A stretch of DNA of 23,267 nucleotides from Candidatus Iainarchaeum sp. (GTDB taxonomy: Archaea > Iainarchaeota > Iainarchaeia > Iainarchaeales > Iainarchaeaceae): NCBI GenBank assembly GCA_043812975.1, contig JBDRLP010000023.1:1-23267 (forward strand), written 5' to 3'. Shown here piece by piece: positions 5,501-19,449 of the stretch. Under the pieces are notes generated by a model. The model made no database searches, was not told where the DNA came from, and saw nothing but the letters and a program-made list of their open reading frames with translations. The number at the start of each line of letters is the position of its first letter. Within the stretch, counting starts at the first letter, position 1. Both the position numbers and the translations under genes were made by a program.

Positions 5501-8500
5501 AATAAGAGTTGAGAAAGAAGGTTACGCCGCTAAAACAGTAAAGTTAAAAGTAAGCGATGAGATTTTAGAATTTGACCCTGAAAAACTTGATTCCACATTA
5601 GATCTCACAAATAATAATGATGAAAAATTATCTCTTAAAATCAAAAACCTGGTTCCGGTAACTTTGCATTTAACCAAGTCAAACTTCAGTATTAATTCAT
5701 TAGGATTGTTAGATGAATTAAGGATGAATAATTTCCTTGCACAATATGTTGATAATTCTCAGTTGCCTTATCAGAAATCATCTGAAGTTAAATTATTGAC
5801 AGCAATTAGTGAGGATGCAAGACTTCTTGATTCAGTTAAGGAACTTAAAGGAAGTGTATTCTTCGAGGTTTCTAATGCTGGTGAAACAATTTTCTGGCCA
5901 ATGGAAGTCCCGATTAATATTACAATTAATCTTGCTGAACCTCCAAAGAACCCTGGGTGTATTGAAGTTTCTTTGAAAGAATGGAAAGCCGCAACTATTT
6001 CAGGAAAAGCACAAACTGAATTCCAAATAACAAATAATTGTCTGAACCAGAATAATGAGCCTCTTGACTTGAGAAATTTGCAGGCAAAAATTGACTGGAA
6101 AAGCAACAAGTTTGGTAATGTTGAATTAATTGTAACAGATCCTGAAACAGGACAGGAAGCACAGGCTGTTTTAATCGAGGAACTTTATTCAATTATGTTT
6201 GATTTGTTTCCCGGAGGAGCACAGTATAATGGTTTGCTTGTTTTCACTCCAAAAGGAGGAACCTCAGGAGAAAAAGCAAAGTTCAGTGTTATTATTGATG
6301 CTGGTCAGATAACAAATTCAGGAGAACAATTAGCTGGATCAAGCAATGATATTCAAGGCGAAATTGACATTATTGATTTAGCACAATGCATACAATATAC
6401 TCCTGATGCAGAAGCAGGAGTAATTTTACAGCCAACTGAACAGGAAGGAACACTCGGAATTGATATTAGTAATTGCGGAAACGTTACTGCTGATTTCTGG
6501 CTTTGTAAAGAAGACACAGGATGTTCAGGCGGTGTTGAAGGGCAAATAATTGTACAGCCTGATAAGTTTACACTTAACTCCAGCAATTCTACAAAAACTG
6601 TTCTTATTGGAAGGCAACCAATTTCAGGAATGTACGGGATTGATGTTCAGGTCAGAACTCCGGGAAGCAATTATCATTCAGTTGGCTTGGTTGATGTTCT
6701 TGTAAAACCAAGACCAGAAGATGCTTTTGAATTATCCAAATATGAATTTGTTACAATTGGAATTGGTTCAAAGGATTCAGCAGAACTAACCAACAGATAC
6801 TTATCAGAAACCGTTACTGTAGATGCAAGCATTTGTGACTGGGGTGATGCTGAGAGAGAAGAAGAGAAAAAAGATAGCTGGTTTGACTGGAAAAATGCCG
6901 GAATCGGAGCAGCCATCGGAGCACTTTCAGGCCTTAACAAAGCAAGGGATGCACAAAAAGCAGCAGCAAACAAGGAAGCTTTGCTTTCAAGTGATGCTTT
7001 AGATCAGGCTAAAGAAGAAACAAAAAATACACAAGCCACTGATGAAGTTACTAAAGGAGAGCATGAAGCACTTTGCAAGACATTGAAGACGAATGTCACT
7101 GCAGCTAACAGCGCTTCCAGTGCTTGTTCAGGAACTGTCGGAGCATCAGCTACATCTTCGGCTAAAACTAAGATTACCTCAGCAAAAACACAGTGTGAAA
7201 CAATGAATAAAGATTTAGAAAATCTTGCTGCATCCGATGATAAAAGTGTGCTTAGCACAGCTGCAGGCACTAATGCAAATACTGGAGAAAATCTACTTGG
7301 AAATGTTTTAAGTAACTTTGATCTTACAAACAGCAAAGTATTGGAAACTCTAACCAAAAACACAACAGGAATGGCAACCGGACTTGAAGCAGCTGCTGCA
7401 TCGTATGAAACAGCAGCAGCTCAGGCTGCGGCACAATGTTCAGCTACCCAACCTCAGGCATGTTCTTGTGCAAGTGCTATTCAAAATGCATTACCCCCAA
7501 CAAATGCAAGTATTACTGATTTGAAAGCTTACAGTAAACAGGCACTTGCTGATTCAAAAGATGCACTTGAAACTGTAACTGATTCAGTTGGTAATGCAAA
7601 GGATTCTATTGGCGATTCATTTGACAAAATTGAACCACTTACTAAATCTTCTTCTGGCGCTGGAAAGTTTGCTAGTGTACTGGCAACAAATGCATTAACT
7701 GGATTCCTGCTTGGTGGTTTGACTGGAGGCCTGTTTGGTGAAGATAAAGAAGATGTTTGTTTACAAAGAAGAATAGCTGATTTGCCGGATTATGTGATTA
7801 ATGTTCTGGATGACCTCAGAGGAATTGATTCAGAAACCCGTAAATTCGGATACCAATTAGACAAGAGTTCGGCACAGGTTATTGGTGAATATGATTTGCA
7901 AAAAGTAGGAATGGTTGTAACAAACCGCAATGAAGAAAACCCGAAGCCTGTGTTTGACACAGCAACATTCAATGCAACACAGCATTTACATGCTGATCCG
8001 ACAGAAATCGAAAAAGGCACCAGTAACTTTGGACCATTTAATGTTCCGGACAGTGAAACTCAGCAGATAGCTCAGAAGATTCATATGAAATTCAAAACTC
8101 AGGAAGCAGTTGAAACTATTCCTGATTTATCATTCGATACACTTTCATGTGTTTCAGGAAGCAAGATTGGAAGAACCGGCACAGGAGCTTTACCAAAAGT
8201 TTCATTGAACTGGAGCTTTAGTTCAAACGGAATAACAAGAGATGCTTGTTTAGAAGAAAACCCTGATGCAATTTACTGCGATGCAACACAGTTCTCAATA
8301 ATGTTAAGCAAAAGAATGCACAGCCTGAAAGAATTTTTTGACGCAAACCCAGCATTAGAATGTCCTCACAATCCTTACGCAGATACACTTGATAACATGT
8401 CGGAATTATTAGAAATTAGTTCTCAGGATTTTCTTCCGGAAGAATGCTATATTCCGACAACAGAAGGAATGCTTGAGGGAAGACCTGCAATAATGCAGTA

Positions 8501-9854
8501 CCTTGATTCAATGGTTATTAACAGCACACAAGAAATAAAAAGTTCTGCTGAATTTGAAAAAACAATACATTTCAATGCATTGTTAATGAGGGATGCTTTT
8601 TCAGATGACTTCCAGAAAGACTTTGCAAAGCACTATTCTGATGAAAGATTCTTTGATACTCCTGACTGGTTCTATGGCCTTGCATTGGATTCTGATGGAG
8701 AAAGTTATGGTTTGGCAAAGTTATACGAAGAAGGCAGAATAAATTTCACAAACAGGTTCTTTGAATCAAACGCATTATCAAGCGCAGGTCTTTATGATAT
8801 AATTTTAAGCATCAGGAGTGATAGTGATAGTTATAATTTCTTCAATTCTGATGGTTCTCCTAATGTCTGGATTGATGTTGAATTCCAGTTATTACAGGAA
8901 CCTAATCCTAATTCAGCATTCTACTCAATGCCATTCGACGGACTTGTAGGATTGCAGGGAAATAGTTTCAGCAGAAATGGTTACGGAATCAGCTTTGACA
9001 ATGAAACAACCGCAAACTTAATCACAATAAACAACGATCCTCAGCCTGCAAAAACTTACAGTGATGCAGGATCTAATCCTGTTGTGTTTGCTAGTTCCTC
9101 ATTTGAAAACAGTTTCTATGCGTTGAATACTTCCGCATCAGAAAGAGGAAATTTATTACAATTAGAAAAAGTTTCAAGCACAGGAGCTTACTTAAAGTTC
9201 AGTCCTTCAAAAGCAACTCCGCTTTTGTTAAAAATTAGTGCAGATGAAGTAAGTGATGATGACTTATCAGCATTCTATTTAGTAACAGCAAGAGATGTTC
9301 CTATTGATACCGGAGCCACAATGACTTTCTGGGAAGGCGCAGGAGCTTGTTTGGATCCAAGCGGGGTTATTATTACAGAAACATTTGACCAGAAACCTGA
9401 CAGAGCTGCTGCTAGTACTGATCCTGTTGTTAACTGGCAATCAGCTTATGCAGTTGATTTCGGAGAAGTGATTTACACAGGAGATGTTTATCTGAGAACA
9501 ATTATTTACACTGACCCGTTAAGTATTTCAAGTATTAAAGCAGAACACCCTGCCAATAAAATGGACTTCTTAACTCCTGATGCAATAGGACAGGAAGTTC
9601 AACTTGGCGGTGTCGGAGGAATTCCATACAACAGTGTTTCAGGAGGAAGCACAGGAAACATTAACAGCGTGGAGGATGTGTTTGAATTAGTTGAGACAGA
9701 AATGGTTTGTGTAGTTGATTCAGGAAGAAAAGCAAACTTTTTCTGGAACCCGAAAGCAATTTATGAAATGACGGGTTCACAAAGAAATGTTTCAGAGTTT
9801 ACAAATTCATTAACCGCAGGAGACACTTGCATAGGTTTTGGGGGGATCAAATGA
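2583..9854 (+). CDS. 2423-aa membrane-anchored giant surface protein with N-terminal carboxypeptidase-regulatory/CnaB-like beta-sandwich repeats
   Basis: Short acidic N-terminus, then one TM segment (VLIGVSVVGVIIIIIAAFFLL). Repeated units of the type G.L.V.V.D..G....A.V....TD..G...F..L..G.Y...A...GY. Many Cys residues and N-x-S/T sequons; no C-terminal anchor. Confidence 0.85.
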   Translation: MTYEDDYTEEPEGIDQRVLIGVSVVGVIIIIIAAFFLLSQNTGNSELTVKIENAESQGLWKAQVKIIGLEETLSVTTDRFGRATFLDIPQGQEIKIEASGSGFEKAVKNITLTQENETITLKLIANLDNQAHIKTITFVGPSGIRLDGELITVDLSCSTGMLLDEPIQYVSTGFLDVEVPSGCGTLLANVSATGYESGNYSLDETQIIRLQELITEEGTIKATVEDSNGRFLDNIEVSISDSYGVSTGFREFTSFGEVKFSLEPGSYKAFAFDPAAKYADAEQIFSISPNSQTKISLIMDEISLGSIKAKAVSKSSGAEIINALITIENPSGEKISQEFKEEFVEFPITEKGTYTLVATAEGFIISAEIEVNSDNANGIYELELAPCTPSTCGLLKIIVKDEDDIPVSNVRVGLTDPETGFFLQEYGLKYTNGEGIVNFTGLESGTYAIIAQKYPAEGTSDSFKMSQDTDTEIEVELVIGEGTIIVEAVDSQGKAIPFGFAEFLGSDGKSFGRLPLDSEGKGTLVTKADKKVYVRVESEGYTNYTSRLFQVYPNEINTINAKMQKEILGDSPKIEFVGMFNETNSPVKGLSAGKTFKARFKVSIPTESDYEQVGVFLRVGEENLVEKDDIYIEKINAPTTSVMKGATYTPPTGEEEDESNLTNNEAKWATAVWDETVQGIYDVEMEIVVRDSTTPAKYLPIFYRVYAINGNGEVLRDPFDSELGTGEETPLKQALYAETYEKGYNENAIEECFEDFCYSERVLDIQEGLFIHSPFDVRIFGNYQLDFSITNNSKRIHDNAEIRIMNSSNGVFPEENLKILSYSIVNSDSQEFSSGNETFELPSFALGDFRQNKTINARFDLRPEELGNTALLVQIVSDNQLVFEKFISFNSVSREDLKVTVFPEVLPAFTEFDLNVNVMLIDKDDDFEAVNDAMVRVERITPDREETVFISSTNGDGLALIRIPPSDPKTRVKIRVEKEGYAAKTVKLKVSDEILEFDPEKLDSTLDLTNNNDEKLSLKIKNLVPVTLHLTKSNFSINSLGLLDELRMNNFLAQYVDNSQLPYQKSSEVKLLTAISEDARLLDSVKELKGSVFFEVSNAGETIFWPMEVPINITINLAEPPKNPGCIEVSLKEWKAATISGKAQTEFQITNNCLNQNNEPLDLRNLQAKIDWKSNKFGNVELIVTDPETGQEAQAVLIEELYSIMFDLFPGGAQYNGLLVFTPKGGTSGEKAKFSVIIDAGQITNSGEQLAGSSNDIQGEIDIIDLAQCIQYTPDAEAGVILQPTEQEGTLGIDISNCGNVTADFWLCKEDTGCSGGVEGQIIVQPDKFTLNSSNSTKTVLIGRQPISGMYGIDVQVRTPGSNYHSVGLVDVLVKPRPEDAFELSKYEFVTIGIGSKDSAELTNRYLSETVTVDASICDWGDAEREEEKKDSWFDWKNAGIGAAIGALSGLNKARDAQKAAANKEALLSSDALDQAKEETKNTQATDEVTKGEHEALCKTLKTNVTAANSASSACSGTVGASATSSAKTKITSAKTQCETMNKDLENLAASDDKSVLSTAAGTNANTGENLLGNVLSNFDLTNSKVLETLTKNTTGMATGLEAAAASYETAAAQAAAQCSATQPQACSCASAIQNALPPTNASITDLKAYSKQALADSKDALETVTDSVGNAKDSIGDSFDKIEPLTKSSSGAGKFASVLATNALTGFLLGGLTGGLFGEDKEDVCLQRRIADLPDYVINVLDDLRGIDSETRKFGYQLDKSSAQVIGEYDLQKVGMVVTNRNEENPKPVFDTATFNATQHLHADPTEIEKGTSNFGPFNVPDSETQQIAQKIHMKFKTQEAVETIPDLSFDTLSCVSGSKIGRTGTGALPKVSLNWSFSSNGITRDACLEENPDAIYCDATQFSIMLSKRMHSLKEFFDANPALECPHNPYADTLDNMSELLEISSQDFLPEECYIPTTEGMLEGRPAIMQYLDSMVINSTQEIKSSAEFEKTIHFNALLMRDAFSDDFQKDFAKHYSDERFFDTPDWFYGLALDSDGESYGLAKLYEEGRINFTNRFFESNALSSAGLYDIILSIRSDSDSYNFFNSDGSPNVWIDVEFQLLQEPNPNSAFYSMPFDGLVGLQGNSFSRNGYGISFDNETTANLITINNDPQPAKTYSDAGSNPVVFASSSFENSFYALNTSASERGNLLQLEKVSSTGAYLKFSPSKATPLLLKISADEVSDDDLSAFYLVTARDVPIDTGATMTFWEGAGACLDPSGVIITETFDQKPDRAAASTDPVVNWQSAYAVDFGEVIYTGDVYLRTIIYTDPLSISSIKAEHPANKMDFLTPDAIGQEVQLGGVGGIPYNSVSGGSTGNINSVEDVFELVETEMVCVVDSGRKANFFWNPKAIYEMTGSQRNVSEFTNSLTAGDTCIGFGGIK

Positions 9855-10216
9855 TTCCGCTTTTTATTTTTGAATTATTTGATGATGCAAACCTTGTAAT
9901 AAAAATTTTTGTTTTAATGACTCTTGTTAGTTGGGTAAAAAATCACGTAGGCACTGGCCCCTTGTCATGGATCTTGGTAGGCGGAATGGGTTATTTTATT
10001 TTGTTTGATGGCTGGAAAATTTTCGGACCGATTTATATTCTGTATATGTTGTTAATGTTCGGAGTCAGTGGAATTCTTATTGACTTCTTCTTTGTTGGAG
10101 GCGGCTCAGGAGGCGGAGGGGAAAAAGGAATGGAAAGTCCAGTGAGTAGCGGAGTTGACATACAAAGAAGAATGGCTTCACAAGCAGCCAATAAAATGAG
10201 GAGGCCCGGAGGATGA
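9851..10216 (+). CDS. Small multi-pass membrane protein (paralog 1) with a Gly-rich, basic C-terminal tail
   Basis: Start reassigned to ATG 9851, which overlaps the TGA of the giant ORF (ATGA) and follows a G-rich SD-like run. About 3 hydrophobic segments. Confidence 0.75.
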   Translation: MIPLFIFELFDDANLVIKIFVLMTLVSWVKNHVGTGPLSWILVGGMGYFILFDGWKIFGPIYILYMLLMFGVSGILIDFFFVGGGSGGGGEKGMESPVSSGVDIQRRMASQAANKMRRPGG

Positions 10217-10620
10217 ATGAAAAAGTCCTACCGAGTACATCCCTAAGGGGTGAGGTGGACGCCGCCCAGAGGGCGTCCACAGCCGCAACTGTGGGGAGGA
10301 TGAATGAAAAAGGCCACATAATTCTCCTAATTATAGGGGGTTTTTTGATTCTGGCAATTATCCCTATCTTGATAACCAGCTTTTTTTGGCCTGCCAAAAT
10401 ATTAATGCAGATAATAATGATTTTCGTGCTTTACACCACTGTAAGAGGTTTTTTGGGAACAGGAACGTTAACTTTGATTGTTTCGGCTGTTCTTATTTAT
10501 TTCATGGTTTTTAAGTGGTTTGAGCTGTTTTTGGCTCTTTATATCTTGCAATTATTGCTTGGATTACAGTTCTTATCTGTTCTAATTTGGGGTATTGGAA
10601 CCACAATGAGGAAAGGATAA
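10213..10620 (+). CDS. Small multi-pass membrane protein (paralog 2). Second possible start at ATG 10300; the first 29 codons derive from an insertion plus duplication
   Basis: MNEK occurs twice (10213 and 10300), each preceded by GGAGG. Hydrophobic core with the motif VRGFLGTGTLTLIVSAVLIYF. Confidence 0.8.
   Translation: MNEKVLPSTSLRGEVDAAQRASTAATVGRMNEKGHIILLIIGGFLILAIIPILITSFFWPAKILMQIIMIFVLYTTVRGFLGTGTLTLIVSAVLIYFMVFKWFELFLALYILQLLLGLQFLSVLIWGIGTTMRKG
10225..10294 (+). mobile_element. Short GC-rich multi-hairpin insertion element (REP/MITE-like), copy 1, flanked by an 18-bp perfect direct repeat
   Basis: GGAGGATGAATGAAAAAG at 10208-10225 and 10295-10312. Hairpins: GTCC(T)ACC..GGTGGAC, CGCCC-AGA-GGGCG and CCACAG-CCGCAA-CTGTGG. 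A related copy lies at 18010-18061. Confidence 0.75.
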
Positions 10621-10664
10621 GTAATTTATTAACATGAAAGCAATAATCTTACAAAGGTGCTATT

Positions 10665-10925
10665 ATGATGATCATTTTGGACGGGTTGATGGACAATATA
10701 TGGATAATTTTAACCCTGTTCTTGTTTGTCTGGATTTATGCCTGGGCTAAACAAAACCTGGGTTCAGCAAAGCTAGCCATACTTTTCTCATTAATAGTCG
10801 TGTATTTGACCTTCTATTCATACCCTGTTTTGGTATGGTTATTGGTTGTTTTTTTCTTAATGCAGACTCTTGGAAAAGATTTTTTGGCACAAGTAAATCC
10901 TTTCGGTGGAGACCAGTTAAGATGA
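10665..10925 (+). CDS. Small membrane protein (paralog 3)
   Basis: AGGTG SD at 10655-10659 and TTTATTAA at 10625-10632. Motif WAKQNLGSAKLAILFSLIVVYL aligns with paralogs 1 and 2. Confidence 0.75.
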   Translation: MMIILDGLMDNIWIILTLFLFVWIYAWAKQNLGSAKLAILFSLIVVYLTFYSYPVLVWLLVVFFLMQTLGKDFLAQVNPFGGDQLR

Positions 10926-10926
10926 T

Positions 10927-11004
10927 TTGCGAACGAAGTGAACAAGTACTATCGAGTCTGACTGCAAGTCAGACGAAGATAGTACACCTCGTTAACGGAG
11001 GTGT
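10927..11004. repeat. Intergenic triple-hairpin palindromic element (REP-like)
   Basis: TTGC-GA-AC-GAA-GT-GA-ACAA (10927-10945); GTACTATC-GA-GTCTGACT-GCA-AGTCAGAC-GAA-GATAGTAC (10946-10985, two perfect 8-bp stems); ACACCTC-GTTAACG-GAGGTGT (10984-11004). Confidence 0.7.
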
Positions 11005-11010
11005 CCGTTA

Positions 11011-11328
11011 GTGGATACGTTTAATTTTCTTGTTTCAATTTTGATAATGATGATTGCAATTCAGTTACAGGAAACTTGGATTGTGTTAGCTGTTTTAATC
11101 ATCAGCATTTTAACCTCAAAAGATATCTCAACAATAATTGCTTTTATTATTGCAACGATAGTTCTTTACATTGTTGTCGGCATGGGAGATGTTGAATCAT
11201 TGTGGCCTGTTGCTATTTTTGGTTTGATAATTGTCGCAATTATTCTTGGTTCAAAACCACAGGAACAAGCTGCAGACCCTTACGGAGGAGGCGCTGATAT
11301 GTTTGGCGGAATGGGCGGCGGTTACTAA
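11011..11328 (+). CDS. Small 4-TM membrane protein with a Gly/Met-rich tail
   Basis: GTG start with GGAGGTG SD at 10997-11003. Four hydrophobic stretches; tail GGGADMFGGMGGGY. Confidence 0.75.
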   Translation: MDTFNFLVSILIMMIAIQLQETWIVLAVLIISILTSKDISTIIAFIIATIVLYIVVGMGDVESLWPVAIFGLIIVAIILGSKPQEQAADPYGGGADMFGGMGGGY

Positions 11329-11694
11329 ATGGCAAAACTTTTAATGAACCTTCCATTAATGATTATTCTTTTAGTTCTTTTTTTTATAGTACTTGGAACA
11401 AACGTAATCTGGGCAGCACTGCCTTTAGGGATTCTTGTTCTGGCTGAAGTTTTTGGAATTATTTCCGGTTTGTTCAAAACAGAACTTATTGAAATGGAAA
11501 AGGCAGAACCAAAACCTCCCGAGGGGCTAAAATTTGTTGAGGAAGGTCTCTCAAGAACAGGAAAGGCACTTGGTAAAGGTGAAAAAGCAAGAATTCAGGG
11601 AAAAAAAATTAAAGATGACAGGGAAGCATTTGGCATTATGGGTGAAGCCGCAGATGGTTTCTTTGACGGGCTTGGAAAACTTTTCAAGAAATAG
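11329..11694 (+). CDS. Membrane protein with two N-terminal TM segments and a charged/amphipathic C-terminus
   Basis: Starts directly after the previous stop (TAA-ATG). Hydrophobic N-terminal half; C-terminal DGFFDGLGKLFKK is amphipathic. Confidence 0.75.
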   Translation: MAKLLMNLPLMIILLVLFFIVLGTNVIWAALPLGILVLAEVFGIISGLFKTELIEMEKAEPKPPEGLKFVEEGLSRTGKALGKGEKARIQGKKIKDDREAFGIMGEAADGFFDGLGKLFKK

Positions 11695-11696
11695 TT

Positions 11697-12338
11697 TTAC
11701 TTCTCAAGTTTAAGAAGAGTTTTTTTATTGGTTTCAAGTATTTTTTTCAGGAGTTCCTGAAGTGCTTTGGTGTTAGCTTTTGTTTCACGAATTTCTTTTT
11801 CAAGAGAAGACATTCTTGTATCAAGAGAATCAATTTTTGCAATTGTTTCAGGAGATAAACTTGGAGTTGAATCGATTTTTTTGTGTAAATCGATAACATT
11901 TTTTTCAACATCTTCCATTTTTTCTTTGTGTTCATCAAGAAGCTGGTGAGTTGTCGTGTGCTGTGCAGCCTGTTCCTGAGAAACCGCTTCAATTTCTTTT
12001 TTGACATTTAAAGGAGGAGCTTCTGCTTCCTCTTCATCAGAAACATCATAATCACCTTGTTCTTCTTTTTCAGTTTCAGATTCATTTTCGTATCCGGATT
12101 CTTTTGATTTTTTCAATTTTTCAAAAGCTTCTTTAGGATCAACAGGGGCTTCTGGAGAAATTCCTTGATTAGGCTCGGGAGGAGCTTCCGGAGAAATTCC
12201 TTTGGCTTCATTAATAACTTTGTCAATTTCCCCTTCATCAAGATTTATTCCCTGAAGGGTTACTCTGATTGTATCATCATCAACGCCGGAAGACAGCATT
12301 CTTTTTACCGTATTCATTACAACTTCATTTGAAACCAT
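11697..12338 (-). CDS. Hypothetical protein: small helical N-domain, acidic/Pro linker, C-terminal coiled coil
   Basis: 213-aa ORF filling the gap. Heptad-like C-terminus (IDSLDTRMSSLEKEIRETKANTKALQELLKKIL); internal GISPEAP duplication. Confidence 0.8.
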   Translation of the reverse strand: MVSNEVVMNTVKRMLSSGVDDDTIRVTLQGINLDEGEIDKVINEAKGISPEAPPEPNQGISPEAPVDPKEAFEKLKKSKESGYENESETEKEEQGDYDVSDEEEAEAPPLNVKKEIEAVSQEQAAQHTTTHQLLDEHKEKMEDVEKNVIDLHKKIDSTPSLSPETIAKIDSLDTRMSSLEKEIRETKANTKALQELLKKILETNKKTLLKLEK

Positions 12339-12414
12339 TTAAATCAACATAAACTAACACAAAACACTAATTTTAATGTTTTCTTTGTTTTTGGCCTGTA
12401 TATTGTTAAGCAAA

Positions 12415-12422
12415 TTTATATA
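12415..12422 (+). promoter_or_regulatory. Putative TATA box (TTTATATA) for the HerA-like gene
   Basis: Consensus archaeal TATA preceded by AAGCAAA, about 20-25 nt before ATG 12442/12448, which suggests a leaderless transcript. Confidence 0.45.
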
Positions 12423-12441
12423 TATTATTTTAGTTTAATAG

Positions 12442-13950
12442 ATGTTAATGCAATTATTCAAAATAGCTAACGGACCATGGGAAAAGCTCTTTTCTGGTAA
12501 TTTTCAGGAACATGAGGTTGAACTATACTCTAACCCTGAAAAGATACTATTAGTCATAGTTTTTGAGAAAAAGCTTGATAGGGTTGAAGGAGCTATAATT
12601 GAGCTTTACAAGGTTTTCAGTGCAGAAGGGGACGTTGAGTCTTTTGTTGAAACACTTCCAAGGGATGTCTTGATTCTTACAAAACACGATGAAAAAAGCA
12701 CCCTCAAATTCCTGTTACTGGGAAGCAAGCCTACTTATGCAATGTGGAATGAAAAAGAATTTGTAAAGGAAGTAGACTTATTGGTTAAAAAATTAAGCAC
12801 CTCAGCCGCTATGATTAAGGATGTTTCAAAAGCATACGAATTAACTCTGAAAGAAATTGCAGAATCAACCAAAGAAATCCAAACTGCATTTTTTACACAA
12901 CCAATGCTCGTACCTTTAATGGCTACTTCAAACCATTCAATGATAAGAGAATCTGTTGATGAAATGAAAGCAATAACCAAAGGAGACATTACACTTGGAT
13001 TAACCAGAGACAGAAAAAAAGTTATTGAACCCATTGCTCTTTTCACTAAAACAATTATAAGTGAAGGTGAACCAAAAGATCGGGGAAGAGTTTTACAGGT
13101 TTTAGCTGAAAGCGCTATGCTTTCAAAAATACCAGTAGTGATATTTGATTATGATAAAAGATTTTCTGGTTTGGGGGAAACAAGCAAAGACGAAGCTGAA
13201 CTGAAAAAATACGAAGTTGAAATTGATCCGCTTGGTTTTCCTGTAAAAAATTACACTCCAGGAGATAGCGTGAAGGTTAATCTGAATATAATAAGTCCAC
13301 GGACAATTGCAGAACTTTTCGGCATTGGTTACAAAGATTTTCCAAGATTATTAACCCGTTTTTTGGCAGAAAACACTGTTACAAGTATTGATGACATGGT
13401 TGAAAAAATCTCAAAACTGCCTCAGTCAGAGGAATTCAGCGAATTTGAAATTTACAAGACTGCAAGAGTGATAAAACTTATAGGTACAAGATATCCGAAC
13501 TTATTCGGGGATAATAGTGAAACTAAAGATATGATAAAAACATCAACCTCAAATATTGCAAGAGCTTCAATAATTGATATTTCTTCAGCGGATAAAAGAA
13601 GCTCCACAATGCTTATCCATTCAGTAGTAAAAGAAATCAGCATGAGTAAACAAAAAGCTGATTCCAACTTTGTTTCAATAATTATTCCGGAAGGAGAAAT
13701 CATTCAGGCCAAAGAAAATCAAAATGTTATTTCAGGTGAAATTTATTCATTGCTAAATGAACTGGCTGTTTCAGGAGGAATGGTTACAATCGCAGCAGCA
13801 AAACCAATAGATATTGATTCAGCAACAAAACAGGATGCTAATGTAAAAATCAATATTGTAAGCGGAAATGATGTTGGCGTGCAAATGAAAAACAGGAAAG
13901 CCTACAGGGTTCTTGTGAGACCGCCATTAAGCAGACAGGCAAAAGATTAG
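12442..13950 (+). CDS. HerA/DUF87/VirB4-like P-loop-fold protein with degenerate Walker A and B motifs
   Basis: Element order matches HerA-like ATPases: ITLG, then TKTIISEGEPKDRGRVLQVLAE (Walker A position), KIPVVIFDYDKRFSGL, VSIIIPEGE (Walker B position), GGMVTIAAAKPIDID, NVKI. Canonical GxxGxGKS and DEAH are absent. Confidence 0.6.
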   Translation: MLMQLFKIANGPWEKLFSGNFQEHEVELYSNPEKILLVIVFEKKLDRVEGAIIELYKVFSAEGDVESFVETLPRDVLILTKHDEKSTLKFLLLGSKPTYAMWNEKEFVKEVDLLVKKLSTSAAMIKDVSKAYELTLKEIAESTKEIQTAFFTQPMLVPLMATSNHSMIRESVDEMKAITKGDITLGLTRDRKKVIEPIALFTKTIISEGEPKDRGRVLQVLAESAMLSKIPVVIFDYDKRFSGLGETSKDEAELKKYEVEIDPLGFPVKNYTPGDSVKVNLNIISPRTIAELFGIGYKDFPRLLTRFLAENTVTSIDDMVEKISKLPQSEEFSEFEIYKTARVIKLIGTRYPNLFGDNSETKDMIKTSTSNIARASIIDISSADKRSSTMLIHSVVKEISMSKQKADSNFVSIIIPEGEIIQAKENQNVISGEIYSLLNELAVSGGMVTIAAAKPIDIDSATKQDANVKINIVSGNDVGVQMKNRKAYRVLVRPPLSRQAKD

Positions 13951-13964
13951 CAACATTAAAGAAC

Positions 13965-14459
13965 TTATTTTTTCTTCTTTGCTTTAGAAGCAACTTTTTT
14001 GCCCTGCATTAATTCTTTTACATCTTTAATGGAAACAAATTCAAGAGGATTAATAGTATCTATAACGTATTTGATTTCTGCTACATCCTCGGCTTTTGCA
14101 TAATTTTCTTTTATGTTCTCAATCTCAGAATCAAGTCTTGCAATTGCTTCTGCCTTCTCATTAAGCTTCCTGTTTATTTCAGCAAGCTCAGGTTCTATTC
14201 CTGAAAGATCCGCTGAATCAGAACCGCGAGTTCCTTGTAAAGTTTTTATTTTTTTGTTTAAAACAAGCAGGTTTCTTCCTAAGATTTTTTCATTCCTCAC
14301 AAGATATTTGATTTTTTGAGAAATAACAAGAATACTGCTGTTCAGTGCTCTAATGTCTGAATTAATTCTTGAGAAAATGTTCTGGGCTTTTCCTGAAACC
14401 CTTTTTTCTTGATTATCATCGTCTCCTTCGCTTTTGGAGTGTCTCTGGTGTGGTGGCAA
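13965..14459 (-). CDS. Coiled-coil hypothetical protein with a basic C-terminal tail
   Basis: TTG start; two heptad regions; C-terminal IKYVIDTINPLEFVSIKDVKEL followed by a Lys-rich tail. Divergent from polB across a 45-bp gap. Confidence 0.75.
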   Translation of the reverse strand: MPPHQRHSKSEGDDDNQEKRVSGKAQNIFSRINSDIRALNSSILVISQKIKYLVRNEKILGRNLLVLNKKIKTLQGTRGSDSADLSGIEPELAEINRKLNEKAEAIARLDSEIENIKENYAKAEDVAEIKYVIDTINPLEFVSIKDVKELMQGKKVASKAKKKK

Positions 14460-14504
14460 AGTAAAACCTTCAATATAAAATCCTTTATTATAACAATAAT
14501 ATCT

Positions 14505-16904
14505 ATGGCATATAATAAAGTTACTGGATTGCTATTAGAAGCCGATTATAAAGTAGATGAGAACGGAAATTCAGTAATTCAGGTTTTTGTCAGCACGGAT
14601 AAAGAAATAAAAAAATTTGAAGATTCTGATTTTAAACCCTATTTTTATGTTATAACAAAAGACCCTGAAAAAACTGCAAAGGCTATTGAGGCTGCTGATT
14701 TTGGAGAAGGAATAAAAGTACTAAAAATAGAAAAAGTTGAAAAGGAAAATGCGAAAAATGTTCTCAGAATTTATTTCAAAAATCCTCAGGAACTGGTAAA
14801 AGCAAGAGACACTATTGAGGAAATTGAAGGGGTTATTGAAAAACGGGAATTTGATATTCCGTTTGCAAAAAGATATTTAATTGATAAAAAATTAAAGCCA
14901 ATGACTGGTGTTGAGGTTGAGGAAGAAAACAATGAAATAAGAAAAATTGTTTCAAAAGAAATTAAACATGATTTAAGGATAGTTGCTATTGACCTTGAAA
15001 CTTATTCTCCGGGAAGATTTTCAGATCCGGAAAAAGACCCGATTTTAATGGCGGTCCTTTCAACAAAAAAAGAATCAATAGTTTACACTTACAAAAAAAC
15101 CACTGCAAAAAATACTGTTATTCTGAAGAATGAAAAAGAATTAGTGAAAAAAATAATTGATGACTTAAACAAAATGCAGCCGGATATTCTGGTTACTTAT
15201 AATGGTGATTCTTTTGACATGCCTTACATAAAAACAAGATGTGAAAAACTTAAACTCGAATGTAAAATTGGTCATGGCGGAATCAAAATTATGAGAAAAG
15301 GAATGTATAATGCTACAAGTTTGAAAGGAACTCAGCATTTAGATGCATTTCAATTGGTAAAGTTTATGGCTAGGATTGGTGCAATTAGTCTTTTGAAATT
15401 TGATTTGGAAAATGTTTCGGAAAAGCTGTTTGGAAAACCAAAAGAAAAAGTTAAAGCAGAGGAAATAAACGAGCTCTGGGATAAAGGAACAATAGACAGA
15501 GTTGTTGAATATAATCGCGAGGACGGAGCAATAACTGTTAAACTTGCTGAAGAATTTTTACCTTTGCAATTGCAGTTAACCTCTATGCTGAGAGAATCAT
15601 TACATGATACTTCCAGAGCTTCGTCAAGCCAGATGGTTGAACAATTATTAATTGTAAACAGTTTTGAAAAAAATGCCTTAATCCCAAACAAGCCAAGGGA
15701 AAGCGAAGTTAATCAAAGAAATTTGCAGACTTATCAAGGGGGTTTTGTGAAAGAGCCTTTGCCGGGGTTGCATGAGAATATTGCTGTATTGGATTTTAGG
15801 TCTCTGCATCCGACAATAATGATTTCACATAACATTTCTCTTGAAACTTTAAAGTGCAAACATGATTCCTGCAAAAAAGGAAATAATCTTTCCCCGGACA
15901 AAGACTGGTTTTGTGAAAAACAAAAAGGTTTTCTTTCAGGAATTCTGGAAGAAATTCTGAATAACAGAATTAAGATTAAGGGGGAAATGAAAAAACTTTC
16001 AAAAGATTCCCATGAATACAAAACACTTAATGCAAGACAACATGCGCTTAAGATTCTTCTGAATTCGCACTATGGTTATTTAGGTTATCCAAGAGCAAGA
16101 TGGTACTCAAGAGAAAGTGCAAGGGCAGTAACAGCATGGAGCAGGCATTATATTCAGAATACGATGGAGCGGGCTAATGAACAGGGGTTTAAGACTTTAT
16201 ATGGAGATACAGATTCTTTATTTATTCTTGTTCCTGAAGGAAAAGGAAAAAAGGAAGTTGTTGAATTTGTTGATGGCATTAATTCTGAACTTCCGGGTGC
16301 AATGGAATTAGAGTTTGAGGGAATGTTTAAACGCGGACTCTTTGTAACAAAAAAAGAGGGCGGGGCGGCAAAGAAAAAGTATGCTTTGGTTGATTTTGAA
16401 GGTAATTTGAAAATAGTTGGTTTTGAGTATGTGCGGCGGGATTGGTCAAATATTGCAAAGGAAACCCAAAAAGGAGTTATTGAAGCTGTGCTGAAAGAAG
16501 GGAATCCTGAAAAGGCAATTTCTCTGGTGAGAAAAGTCATTAGTGATTTGAAAGCAGGAAAGGTTCCGAAAAAAGAACTTGTTATAATGACACAACTCAA
16601 AAGAAAAATTGAAAAGTATAATGCTATTGGTCCGCATGTTGCCGCGGCAAAAAAAGCAATCGTACGCGGAAAAGAAATTGATATTGGATCTGTTTTAGGA
16701 TTTGTAATTACTAAAGGAGTTGGGAAAAAGATTTCTGATAATGCTGAACTAGAAGAATATGTTGAGGAAGGGAATTATGATTCAGATTATTACATAAAAC
16801 ATCAGGTCATTCCTGCAGTAATCAAAATAATGCGGGAATTAGGGTATGAAGAAGAAGATTTGATTCAGGGCGGAAAGCAGAGTTCGCTTTCTGCTTTCAC
16901 GTAA
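14505..16904 (+). CDS. polB: Family B DNA polymerase (archaeal PolB with 3'-5' exonuclease domain), 799 aa
   Basis: ExoI DLET, ExoII YNGDSFD, ExoIII YNRED; motif A DFRSLHP, motif B KILLNSHYGY, motif C YGDTDS; KKKYAL and VRRDWS. N-terminal DY/PYFY/EFDIPF resembles the uracil-binding pocket. Start set to ATG 14505 because TTG 14409 overlaps the divergent gene. Confidence 0.97.
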   Translation: MAYNKVTGLLLEADYKVDENGNSVIQVFVSTDKEIKKFEDSDFKPYFYVITKDPEKTAKAIEAADFGEGIKVLKIEKVEKENAKNVLRIYFKNPQELVKARDTIEEIEGVIEKREFDIPFAKRYLIDKKLKPMTGVEVEEENNEIRKIVSKEIKHDLRIVAIDLETYSPGRFSDPEKDPILMAVLSTKKESIVYTYKKTTAKNTVILKNEKELVKKIIDDLNKMQPDILVTYNGDSFDMPYIKTRCEKLKLECKIGHGGIKIMRKGMYNATSLKGTQHLDAFQLVKFMARIGAISLLKFDLENVSEKLFGKPKEKVKAEEINELWDKGTIDRVVEYNREDGAITVKLAEEFLPLQLQLTSMLRESLHDTSRASSSQMVEQLLIVNSFEKNALIPNKPRESEVNQRNLQTYQGGFVKEPLPGLHENIAVLDFRSLHPTIMISHNISLETLKCKHDSCKKGNNLSPDKDWFCEKQKGFLSGILEEILNNRIKIKGEMKKLSKDSHEYKTLNARQHALKILLNSHYGYLGYPRARWYSRESARAVTAWSRHYIQNTMERANEQGFKTLYGDTDSLFILVPEGKGKKEVVEFVDGINSELPGAMELEFEGMFKRGLFVTKKEGGAAKKKYALVDFEGNLKIVGFEYVRRDWSNIAKETQKGVIEAVLKEGNPEKAISLVRKVISDLKAGKVPKKELVIMTQLKRKIEKYNAIGPHVAAAKKAIVRGKEIDIGSVLGFVITKGVGKKISDNAELEEYVEEGNYDSDYYIKHQVIPAVIKIMRELGYEEEDLIQGGKQSSLSAFT

Positions 16905-16936
16905 ACTTTAAAACTGGTTTCAGAGAAGATTTGTTT

Positions 16937-17833
16937 ATGGAAAAGGAAGAATTAGATGCTTACAAGAAAGCCGGAGAAATAGTAAAAGAAGCTCAGGAAC
17001 TTTCAAAGAAAAAGCTTAAAGTTGGCACTAATCTTTTTGAGTTTGCTGAGGAAATTGAAAAAGCAATAAAGAAAAAAGGCGGTTTTCCTGCATTTCCAAT
17101 AAACTTATCTGTAAACAATGTAGCTGCTCATTATACTCCTGGTTTTGAATCAGAGGATATTCTGGAAGAGGATGCAATTATCAAAATTGATATTGGAGTT
17201 CATGTTGATGGTTTTATTTGCGATACTGCTGAAACAATTGATTTTTCAGGAAAACAAACTGAAATGGTTAATGCAGCAAAAGAAGCTTTGGAAGCTGCGG
17301 TAAAACTTGTGAAAGAAAAAACTGAATTAGGAACAATTGGAGAAAAAATTCAAAAAACAATTAAAGGAAAAGGCTTCAACCCGATTCAGAACCTTTCAGG
17401 TCACGGGGTTCAGCAGTATGATGCACATACTTATCCTACAATTCCTAACATAGCTAATAATGACGCAAAAGTTCTTGAGGATGAAATGGCTATTGCTATT
17501 GAACCTTTTGCAACGAATGGACAAGGATTTGTTAGAGAAGGAAGTCAGGCAGAAATTTTTCAAATGGAAGAGAAGAAACCTTTGAGGGGAAGAGAAGCAA
17601 GAAAAATAATTGATTTTATTGAAGAAGAATATTCTACTTTGCCATTCGCAGAAAGATGGATTCAAAGGGATTTGGAAATGAGTGAATTTTCCAGAAAAAT
17701 AGGGTTACGTGAACTAATGCAGAAAAAGTGCATTGGTGCTTTTCCTTTGCTAAAAGAAGACGAAGGAAAAATAGTCACTCAAGCAGAAACAACATTGCTT
17801 TTGAACGAAGGAAAAGTAATCCGCCTGTATTAA
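16937..17833 (+). CDS. map: Type II methionine aminopeptidase
   Basis: AHYTP, KIDIGVHVDGFICDTA, NLSGHG, AIEPFAT, the type II helical insert (TLPFAERW) and QAETT. Start is ATG 16937 or TTG 16931. Confidence 0.95.
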   Translation: MEKEELDAYKKAGEIVKEAQELSKKKLKVGTNLFEFAEEIEKAIKKKGGFPAFPINLSVNNVAAHYTPGFESEDILEEDAIIKIDIGVHVDGFICDTAETIDFSGKQTEMVNAAKEALEAAVKLVKEKTELGTIGEKIQKTIKGKGFNPIQNLSGHGVQQYDAHTYPTIPNIANNDAKVLEDEMAIAIEPFATNGQGFVREGSQAEIFQMEEKKPLRGREARKIIDFIEEEYSTLPFAERWIQRDLEMSEFSRKIGLRELMQKKCIGAFPLLKEDEGKIVTQAETTLLLNEGKVIRLY

Positions 17834-17863
17834 TTGCAATTCAGTAATCCTTTTTAATTTAGA

Positions 17864-17915
17864 TTTTCTTTCTTTTTCGCCAAGGTTTTTCTTTCTTTTT
17901 TAAAAGAAAGAAAAA
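17864..17915 (+). repeat. Mirror repeat plus inverted repeat (potential intrastrand triplex or terminator-like element)
   Basis: TTTTCTTTCTTTTT (17864-17877), CGCCAAGG, TTTTTCTTTCTTTT (17886-17899), TT, AAAAGAAAGAAAAA (17902-17915). Confidence 0.75.
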
Positions 17916-17921
17916 GATTGT

Positions 17922-17993
17922 GCTCCTATGGGGTAATGGATAGCCTTCAAGCTTGCGGAGCTTGAGACCCGAGTTCGATTCTCGGTAGGAGCG
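17922..17993 (+). tRNA. tRNA-Arg(GCG)
   Basis: Acceptor stem GCTCCTA/TAGGAGC; anticodon stem CAAGC/GCTTG with loop TTGCGGA (GCG at 17955-17957); T-arm CCGAG-TTCGATT-CTCGG; no encoded CCA. Confidence 0.95.
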
Positions 17994-18009
17994 AATAATT
18001 ACCTTTTCA

Positions 18010-18061
18010 GTCCTACTGAGCTCAAGCGAAGTGGACGCGTACCCCACAGTCGCAACTGTGG
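18010..18061 (+). mobile_element. Short multi-hairpin element, copy 2
   Basis: GTCCTACTGAG..GAAGTGGACGC..CCACAGTCGCAACTGTGG shares three ordered blocks with 10225-10294. Confidence 0.7.
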
Positions 18062-18090
18062 CTCGGGTTCAATTCTCGGCAGGAGCGAAT
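18062..18090 (+). repeat. Degenerate duplicate of the tRNA-Arg 3' end
   Basis: CTCGGGTTCAATTCTCGGCAGGAGCGAAT versus CCCGAGTTCGATTCTCGGTAGGAGCGAAT (17968-17996): 25/29 identical, and all 4 differences are transitions. Confidence 0.85.
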
Positions 18091-19103: not shown

Positions 19104-19279
19104 AGATATTAGAAAAATTAGATGTGGAAGCCAAAGCAGGTAACACTAATATACTTCACGGAAAATACTATCAACATGATTTCCGAATTCCAAAAAGCCA
19201 AGTAAAGGCATTTAAAGATGTTCTAACTGAAAATTACTTACCTAAACGCAAAGACAGATTAGAAACAATACATTCTCTT

Positions 19280-19397
19280 GCGGGAGTCCGATAGCGGCAA
19301 TTCGGACGGGTTTAGGAAGCTTATAAGTCAATATGATTTTCTGCTTGAAACACCCGTTGGCTTAGCGCCTTCGCAGGTTCGAGTCCTGCCTCCCGCA
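19280..19397 (+). tRNA. tRNA-Leu(TAG) with a 35-nt intron (19317-19351) at canonical position 37/38
   Basis: Acceptor GCGGGAG/CTCCCGC plus discriminator A; anticodon stem ACGGG/CCCGT, TAG at 19313-19315; long variable arm GGC-TTAGC-GCC; T-arm GCAGG-TTCGAGT-CCTGC. BHB: helix TTTA/TGAA, bulges GG^A and AC^A, outer helix AGC/GCT. Confidence 0.93.
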
Positions 19398-19449
19398 TTA
19401 TTCTACTTTAAACCTATAACAATAAATAGTTATTAAATCAAATTCATTT

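Follow-up and report, generated by a model that had tools for sequence, protein, structure and literature searches.

The stretch of DNA analysed here (the window, 23,267 nucleotides, from the genome called G000 below) contains three members of a dispersed family of gene-less elements of small-genome, Iainarchaeota-like archaea, 45–110 bp long and built of variable 5' hairpins and a fixed 3' end predicted to form a pseudoknot. With a probability of roughly 0.55 we regard them as one-ended single-stranded DNA elements, joined to the target at a nick and leaving a duplication made by host repair. The element likely moves as a folded single DNA strand through an enzyme acting in trans. Its sites are empty in relatives, one end is precise and contains covarying pairs, the duplications vary in length, and the insertions have a target preference, with hot spots at tRNA ends.

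All features described here for the window lie on the forward strand. Copies 1 and 2 were located at 10225..10294 and 18010..18061, in agreement with the original prediction for both position and orientation, and the compensatory change it described in the first stem, ACC/GGT in copy 1 and ACT/AGT in copy 2, was read directly in both. The duplications of upstream DNA that it reported after each copy were likewise present, with 18/18 and 25/29 identical bp. Copy 1, of the T class, has a 5' hairpin with a tandem G-A motif, an extra linker hairpin, and the terminal 6-bp stem at 10277-10294. The upstream copy of its target duplication (10208..10225, 18 bp) comprises a ribosome-binding site, an overlapping stop/start and the first codons, is found as a single copy in the empty site of G003, and ends with the base that is also the first G of the element. 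The downstream copy (10295..10312, 18 bp) restores the ribosome-binding site and the original start codon. The net insertion was 87 bp, i.e., 29 codons in frame, inside the ORF 10213-10620, and the orthologous sites in G003, G005, and G002 are empty. Copy 2, a canonical T class copy, sits behind a tRNA-Arg(GCG) gene (17921..17994, matched by Rfam) and duplicates its 3' part. The upstream, functional copy of this duplication (17968..17996, 29 bp) covers the T arm and the 3' strand of the acceptor, and is followed by 13 unduplicated nt (17997-18009), the 5' hairpin of the element (18010-18036), its predicted H-type pseudoknot (18037..18061), and the orphan copy (18062..18090). In the pseudoknot 18037-18039 would pair with 18051-18053, and 18044-18049 with 18056-18061, leaving loops of 4, 1, and 2 nt. 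Empty orthologous sites were found in G001, G003, G002, and G004, while in G005 the corresponding tRNA-Arg is followed by an element of a different class that has made a separate duplication of about 20 bp. The third element (10929..11010) consists of a GAA mini-hairpin, a long hairpin with a GCA triloop and an R-class pseudoknot (10984-11010), which includes a Shine-Dalgarno sequence and lies directly before the GTG start (11011). The same class with other 5' modules occupies this site in G003 and G005, and the site is empty in G002. The third copy, the tRNA target of copy 2, the in-frame nature of copy 1 and the predicted 3' pseudoknot had all been missed earlier.

The empty sites in relatives, together with about 60 copies in G000, bear out the proposed dispersed, non-autonomous mobile family, and dispose of the case in which only two copies exist genome-wide. 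Fifty-nine of these copies were classified into five pseudoknot classes, and the family was found in 31 of the 132 genomes of the phylum. The elements are G+C-rich in an A+T-rich genome, and their 5' modules are freely variable and not mirror images of the 3' end, i.e., there are no terminal inverted repeats. Relative to the upstream gene, 41 of the 59 copies were in sense, 14 antisense and two antisense or unclear, with two copies having no upstream gene. The family matched no known Rfam family, as the gathering threshold was reached by the tRNA alone and the best hits in permissive scans (E 0.64 and 1.9) both fell off the elements. A literature search of partial coverage gave no published description of it. 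About 19 bacterial matches had no complementary stem or no 5' hairpin; their number equalled the chance expectation and they were dropped.

The pairing within the 3' end was consistent between copies. Among 146 distinct canonical copies, in which part of the pairing is constrained by the search pattern, the 6-bp stem was Watson-Crick in all 146, with 11 arm variants and no G-T, and the crossing helix was TCG/CGA in 79, GCG/CGC in 66 and broken in one. In 30 distinct rows 270 of 270 cells paired and five of the nine pairs changed on both sides; none of 500 shuffles equalled this result, and slid controls paired in 20-41%. The fixed 3' end is, as predicted from these comparisons, a covarying H-type pseudoknot. 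Hammerhead, HDV-like, and K-turn folds, judged by eye against their consensus, did not fit. The hairpin loops were of the DNA type. GNA triloops occurred in 48 of the 101 best hairpins (GNRA in two, UNCG in none) and in 1 of 107 on the opposite strand, and a wider census counted them in 50 of 129 hairpins, compared with 0 of 89 for a control of mostly 16S rRNA and about one per shuffle. Mini-hairpins of the GCGNAGC type are exceptionally stable and exonuclease resistant in DNA, with much weaker RNA counterparts (PMC13037366). The loop census and its controls, computational as they are, point to an element that folds as a single-stranded DNA hairpin.

A duplication above the control threshold accompanied 56 of the 161 copies examined, the other 105 having none above it, and at 54 loci it measured 17–53 bp. 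In G000, 16 of the 39 candidate 3' ends (two or three of which are probably not elements) had a duplicate scoring at least 28 and starting no more than 4 nt from the end; the same test at 500 random positions gave 1.4%. The long, variable duplications originally described are thus real and beyond chance, although they pass the threshold only in the above fraction of copies. Mismatches between duplicates at positions 1–5 were seen in 16, 10, 7, 11, and 7 of the 54 loci, and in 0–5 at positions 6–18, an excess partly favoured by the lower scoring penalty at positions 1–5; loci from related genomes are not independent. The insertions have one precise 3' end, a variable 5' end, a duplication of variable length, and junction errors in its first 1–5 nt.

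The target preference covers 9 nt 3' of the junction and is loose, N-K-N-N-R-V-D, with +7 almost never C. A matrix trained on 99 flanks without duplication and tested on 51 other loci scored 0.89 at the start of the upstream duplicate and -2.6 at neighbouring positions (p 1e-14), with C at +7 in 0 of 51. When tRNA-end sites were excluded, C was found at +7 in 1 and at +2 in 6 of 173 junctions, the background being 19%; in G179 the +2 bias was weak (C in 5 of 24). Seventeen of 190 junctions lay within -4..+4 nt of tRNA ends, 12 at 3' ends in antisense and five at 5' ends in sense, and only two lay at 5–90 nt. Nick positions -1 to -5 had no consensus apart from a mild A excess, and no conserved tetranucleotide preceded either the hairpin or the target nick on the 5' side. 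Neither a general preference for the foot of hairpins nor pairing between the downstream flank and the element was found. In a test for donor-derived tails the downstream copy fitted the matrix better in 21 of 33 cases (p 0.08).

The window had been said to encode no mobilising enzyme, and none was found nearby. RAYT/TnpA(Y1), reverse transcriptase, or GIY-YIG genes flanked by the motif, which the original prediction had proposed as the place to look, were not found either; GIY-YIG genes were mostly single-copy. Within the genus TnpB occurred in G000 only, with an end unrelated to the element. Only one of the 23 family genomes had Cas1, and no genome of the genus did; the element, having no inverted ends, does not qualify as a casposon. 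RNA ligase matches lay in each genome's long ligase ORF and were set aside. Motif screens (RT, HUH, HNH, GIY) of G000 and 104 metagenome loci gave nothing credible, the 298 ORFs near elements, sorted by eye and by clustering, were housekeeping genes with no parent IS seen, and an identity-outlier screen of G179 versus G000 gave no transferred gene. Subtraction with G038, a weak filter because G038 itself carries two pseudoknot variants, left a PD-(D/E)XK nuclease, LAGLIDADG, TatD, PLD-family, and helicase-like proteins, none of them tied to the element. LAGLIDADG had 18 matches in G000.

In the mechanism we prefer, the element-bearing strand would be released, and either a structure-guided cut or exonuclease stalling would place its 3' end at the pseudoknot foot, in some cases leaving a tail of 1–5 nt. 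This end would then be joined to, or copied from, a nick fitting the loose 9-base preference, tRNA acceptor ends being favoured. The 5' side, which has no fixed end, would be closed 17–53 nt farther along through strand displacement and annealing by the host, so that the stretch between both joints becomes duplicated. Copies would persist at sites whose stop codon, ribosome-binding site, reading frame or tRNA end is restored by the element or by the duplication. The enzyme in trans may be a host replication or repair enzyme, or be encoded on an unbinned mobile element; as no mobiliser was found, the first three steps are drawn from the footprints alone. We know of no characterised DNA-based pathway that gives such insertion geometry, and the sense bias toward the upstream gene (41/59 in G000) counts against a DNA route and suits an RNA step. 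A strict lagging-strand model gained no support, since copies are not locked to one strand and strands are mixed in G001 and G179. In G000 75 of 86 same-contig pairs share strand, with 45 coming from one operon-rich contig and the null being flawed, and G179 has no skew switch to test the model against.

A precise end combined with a variable duplication is typical of target-primed reverse transcription, one of the two mechanisms suggested originally, and the hairpin-plus-pseudoknot layout resembles tRNA-like structures of RNA. For that mechanism the geometry stands, i.e., the precise end, the variable duplication, and the junction errors, while the enzyme was not found. It is possible, at rather low odds, that the element is an archaeal SINE-like retroposon, the 3' hairpin-pseudoknot of its transcript serving as a tRNA-like handle for a virus or plasmid reverse transcriptase in trans, which would prime at a nick or a tRNA 3' end, or switch template from a tRNA 5' end. 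The insertion geometry with its junction errors, the orientation of the 17 tRNA-end junctions, and the sense bias fit this reading, and Mauriceville-type reverse transcriptases recognise a 3' tRNA-like structure, need little priming complementarity, and switch templates (10.1101/792986). It is opposed by the DNA-type loops, the core stem without G-T, the lack of a match in viral contigs with two patterns, and the distribution of RVT_1 (reverse transcriptase), which was not found in any of the 23 family genomes or of the 19 genomes making up two further families, one being that of the element-rich G179. The order gave 37 reverse transcriptase matches, and the 17 loci read among them resemble DGR, group II intron, or Cas-linked enzymes. 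None of these was seen to share the 3' end of the element, and the three from an element-bearing family had no pseudoknot nearby; a partner enzyme may still lie on an unbinned element. The other original suggestion, HUH/RAYT-type single-stranded DNA chemistry, fared similarly: the loop census supports its single-stranded half, whereas Y1/RAYT-type genes were not found in G000, G001, and G003, and 12 Y1 loci read in other family members have unrelated ends without the motif. A REP/REPIN- or IS200-type element, whose fold is bound by an HUH enzyme (Y1/RAYT, Y2, or Rep) that cuts 3' of it, would account for a strand-specific, DNA-type fold, and the element-rich G007 has seven Y1 matches. The absent tetranucleotide and Rep_trans in 0 of 5 speak against it, as does the fact that IS200/IS605 insertion is not known to make a duplication, and we find this reading improbable. 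Y2 scored 0 of 5 as well, with a silent control that deprives this count of weight. The binding of HUH Y1 enzymes to small subterminal hairpins, with the cut falling at a set position (PMC6006769), agrees with the reading.

Allele-to-allele homing, in which, at a locus already occupied by an element, a donor strand made up of upstream gene sequence and the element recombines by its 5' homology and joins precisely at its 3' end, is compatible with the single-stranded insertion we prefer; the two "duplicates" would then be two alleles and not one frozen copy. Duplicates differed in coding sequence by 39 synonymous and 30 non-synonymous changes, against 41% synonymous expected of a neutral orphan (p 0.008), a comparison in which reading frames were assigned automatically, several of them spuriously, and orthologous loci were counted more than once. 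Several duplicated loci had four synonymous changes and none or one other. At one locus the 5' point was unchanged but the 3' junctions differed (49 bp in L177, 19 bp in G000 C40), and at one locus L141 and L052 carried distinct elements at an identical junction. Downstream duplicates are often constrained as ribosome-binding sites, which weakens the argument, the three changes of the copy 2 orphan relative to G003 are those expected of plain decay, and flank 9-mers in G000 did not cluster (p 0.16). We consider homing unlikely. We give very little credence to domesticated cis-regulatory RNA structures for translation control or tRNA 5' processing, with incidental duplications. The five R-class copies seen in G000 hold a Shine-Dalgarno sequence at a start codon, five tRNA 5' ends in G000 abut an element, and the third window copy is common to G000, G003, and G005. 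Against this reading stand the empty sites of close relatives, the copies in antisense, the tandem arrays, the unrelated neighbour genes, and the DNA-type loops; it may hold for the R class only.

Like SINEs, the element shows junction errors and a duplication of variable length, and has a precise 3' end and a 5' end that varies; it differs from SINEs and other retroposons by a host family without reverse transcriptase, by having neither a poly(A) or simple-repeat tail nor an encoded CCA, and by its DNA-type loops. The Tymovirus tRNA-like 3' structure is built like the element, as a hairpin stacked on a small H-type pseudoknot whose first stem has 3 bp and whose first loop has 4 nt; the element, however, has no ACCA end and no conserved T loop and exchanges its hairpin freely. 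Further traits in common with the Mauriceville retroplasmid and SINEs or non-LTR retroposons are the structured 3' handle and the association with tRNA ends (10.1101/792986). MITEs and Rickettsia palindromic elements are also short, non-coding, structured, dispersed, and dependent on an enzyme in trans, with some in-frame insertions (here copy 1, 29 codons; PMC10969869). The present element lacks terminal inverted repeats, has one end fixed and the other variable, and makes duplications that differ per copy over 17–53 bp instead of being short and fixed; its sequence is G+C-rich in an A+T-rich genome, and no parent IS was seen among the 298 ORFs near elements. REP/REPIN-RAYT systems and IS200/IS605 ends resemble the element in that their small DNA hairpins are strand-specific, their copies numerous and intergenic, and their substrate likely single-stranded DNA, but the element has no GTAG-like guide tetranucleotide or flanked Y1 gene and has a pseudoknot end and long variable duplications (PMC6006769). 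Fungal mitochondrial GC clusters and double-hairpin elements are likewise tiny, G+C-rich, and palindromic, with merger and shuffling of modules and exchange by flanking homology through an unknown mechanism; their direct repeats are 2–3 bp (AG, ACT), unlike the duplications here, and the part of the description available mentions no pseudoknot end or 9-nt target preference (PMC4478555).

The spread of tiny palindromic repeats with no partner gene, such as Rickettsia elements, mitochondrial GC clusters, and many REP-like repeats, is a long-standing question. The present family offers unusually sharp handles: its 25-nt core covaries, one of its ends is exact, its target preference can be measured, and there are hot spots and empty alleles. 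On this basis synthetic oligonucleotides and purified host enzymes could be used to test the mechanism. We propose, tentatively and with rather more doubt than confidence, a new class of mobile DNA, in which a natural single-stranded DNA pseudoknot of 25 nt would be the sole mobility signal and would be inserted one-ended by ordinary host replication or repair enzymes at sequence-biased nicks and tRNA ends, without a transposase or reverse transcriptase of its own lineage, leaving variable, retroposon-like duplications. If true, either of the leading outcomes, transposase-free insertion driven by a DNA pseudoknot or a prokaryotic SINE, would be new to our knowledge. In a gene-dense DPANN genome about 60 such insertions are tolerated through the rebuilding of stops, ribosome-binding sites, and tRNA ends.

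Both copies in the window, the change in their first stem and their flanking duplications were present in the sequence as the original prediction had described them. Copy 1 (10225-10294) accounts for an in-frame 87-bp insertion at an overlapping stop/start and has an exact 18-bp duplication. Copy 2 (18010-18061) lies behind tRNA-Arg(GCG) and is followed by 29 bp duplicated from the 3' part of the tRNA, 25 of the 29 being identical. Orthologous loci in related genomes were empty, in G003, G005 and G002 for copy 1 and in G001, G003, G002 and G004 for copy 2. The copies are therefore insertions, as expected of the mobile element that had been proposed. At the copy 2 site, G005 carried another element class, accompanied by a separate duplication of about 20 bp. 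For a third copy (10929-11010), G003 and G005 had the same class with different 5' modules, and G002 was empty. In G001 (locus L021) and G003 (L022), the orthologous tRNA-Arg had some 45-50 extra nt inserted behind the anticodon, at the site of window 17942-17943; the source genome lacks this insertion, which is probably an intron.

The source genome, G000 (1.24 Mb, 68 contigs, of which the window is C23, 35% G+C, 94.5% complete), held 59 copies according to patterns for the pseudoknot classes (T 43, Y 6, G 5, R 3, L 2), which overlook some copies, the third window copy among them. The strict T pattern was found in 19 of 23 host-family genomes and in 6 of 192 other genomes of the class, and a looser pattern in 31 of 132 genomes (all at least 85% complete) from five families. 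Named records with the same motif were titled Candidatus Iainarchaeum or "archaeon", and the host is therefore likely an Iainarchaeota (DPANN) archaeon. Gene content among the 12 window proteins scanned was housekeeping or unknown (PolB, methionine aminopeptidase, TrkH, HerA-like ATPase). Two adjacent very large ORFs, 2-2512 and 2583-9854, are alike in their C-terminal regions and probably encode surface proteins. A metagenome scan gave 104 loci, and the distinct matches printed had, by eye, a 5' hairpin and a complementary stem. One lineage had the elements in head-to-tail arrays; such arrays, some beginning with a larger variant, were seen at L143, L162, L179, L193 and L286. G179, a single-contig genome from another family, had about 25 copies with additional stem variants and an array of three 85-bp units, and G038 had two pseudoknot variants with a crossing helix TCA/TGA, as well as other dispersed repeats in 15-22 copies. 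Two patterns gave no match in viral contigs, and the Rfam comparison, suggested at the outset, returned no matching family.

The 5' part consists of interchangeable hairpins, and the fixed 3' end is a predicted H-type pseudoknot. Across 146 distinct canonical copies, the three bases that follow the 5' hairpin covaried with three loop bases (TCG/CGA 79, GCG/CGC 66, broken 1), and the terminal 6-bp stem was Watson-Crick throughout in 11 variants. In an alignment of 30 distinct cores, all 270 cells paired, five of nine pairs changed on both sides, and none of 500 shuffles matched either the share of paired cells or the covariation score, a result leaning towards the pseudoknot since the patterns that picked the set dictate some of the structure. 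Classes G, R and Y retained the same fold with unrelated sequence. GNA triloops closed 48 of 101 best hairpins (GNRA 2, UNCG 0; no hairpin was detected in 37 of 138 5' modules) and 1 of 107 on the opposite strand. Over all hairpins, the GNA triloops numbered 50 of 129, whereas a control drawn mostly from 16S rRNA had 0 of 89 and each shuffled set about one. In DNA, according to passages of PMC13037366, such mini-hairpins show high stability and resist exonucleases, and their RNA counterparts are much weaker. Mainly for this reason we interpret the element as a folded single strand of DNA.

Duplicates exceeded the 99th percentile of 1000 random positions in 56 of 161 copies. The predicted variability in length was confirmed, the 54 non-tandem duplications ranging from 17 to 53 bp; shorter ones occur below the threshold, e.g., 14 bp on contig C64. 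Mismatches clustered at the first five bases past the element, where several loci had a one-base insertion. In coding sequence, 39 differences between duplicates were synonymous and 30 non-synonymous, a synonymous excess relative to a neutral orphan (p 0.008), counted with automatic frames and related loci included. The nine bases past the junction were biased, the bias being over by +10. This is target preference and not later selection, because a matrix from 99 duplication-free flanks singled out, at 51 other loci, the position where the upstream copy begins (p 1e-14), and none of these loci had C at +7. The preference persisted when tRNA-end sites were excluded (C at +7 in 1 of 173), and no general preference for hairpin feet was seen. 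Some loci shared the 5' point with new junctions, or the junction with new elements. At the start of a gene which we take to be ABCE1-like, antisense insertions in several genomes used four different junctions (C27 107989-108056 of G000; L015, L053, L069, L244).

The ends of tRNA genes were hot spots: among 190 junctions, 12 lay within -4 to +4 nt of 3' ends (antisense) and five of 5' ends (sense), against two at 5-90 nt. An A/T-rich hairpin repeat (17863-17917) adjoins the 5' end of tRNA-Arg. Its look-alikes are numerous in relatives within the genus, and in G000 they precede tRNA Cys, Ser(gga), Glu(ctc) and Val(tac); a loose pattern had 54 matches on both strands together. The repeat possibly represents another dispersed family favouring tRNA ends. 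An intron-bearing tRNA at 19279-19398, called solely with the intron option and labelled Phe with unsure identity, is entered by a start-less open frame from about 19102, possibly the relic of an endonuclease gene. Downstream of tRNA-Val(tac) (C27 74848-74920) and of tRNA-Asn (C58 9266-9341) in G000, the 3' end of the respective tRNA is partly repeated; for tRNA-Asn no element was seen between the two copies.

We favour, at a probability of roughly 0.55, a mechanism in which a folded single strand, with the pseudoknot defining its 3' end, would be joined or copied by that end at a nick of the preferred kind, while strand displacement and annealing by the host would close the other side and thereby make the duplication. 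Allele-to-allele homing may, with a low probability, act alongside it. Searches for a mobilising gene over the available genomes, incomplete and of binned DNA, identified none; clustering of element-neighbour genes and two comparative genome screens gave no candidate, and TnpB, Cas1, GIY-YIG and Rep_trans genes showed no linkage to the element. No TnpB gene turned up in the genus apart from a solitary one (398 aa, C9 1157-2353 of G000).

The main rival, which we hold to be rather doubtful, is a SINE-like process driven by reverse transcriptase (RT). Target-primed reverse transcription had been offered in the original prediction, and it suits the insertion geometry and, by passages of 10.1101/792986, the tRNA-end junctions, but it fits the hairpin loops poorly and lacks its enzyme, RT being found in none of 23 host-family genomes. 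RT was present in 26 of 196 genomes of the order, where the 17 loci read resemble, by their hallmarks, RTs of DGR, group II intron or Cas-linked type. RT genes at L426-L433 and L435-L440, from other families of the order, were preceded by AAC-rich template-like repeats, as in diversity-generating retroelements. The HUH/RAYT-type chemistry proposed at the same time was not supported, and a REP/IS200-type route is improbable: Y1 genes occurred in 9 of 23 host-family genomes but not in G000, G001 or G003, the ends at the 12 Y1 loci read were unrelated to the element, and both linkage and the guide motif, as set out in parts of PMC6006769, failed.

The element works like other small non-autonomous repeats, such as MITEs and Rickettsia elements (PMC10969869) and yeast GC clusters (PMC4478555), but, where tested, lacks their defining features as given in parts of these sources. 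No description of the family was found in the portions of literature searched, many journals and supplements lying outside that search, and we rated its anatomy, mechanism aside, as categorically new. In the five R-class cases seen (window 10984-11010; G000 C1 13151 and 39045, C3 1907, C27 65113), a Shine-Dalgarno sequence lay inside the pseudoknot, paired to its complement, and the 3' end fell at the start codon or one base before it; these pseudoknots are candidates for translational control.
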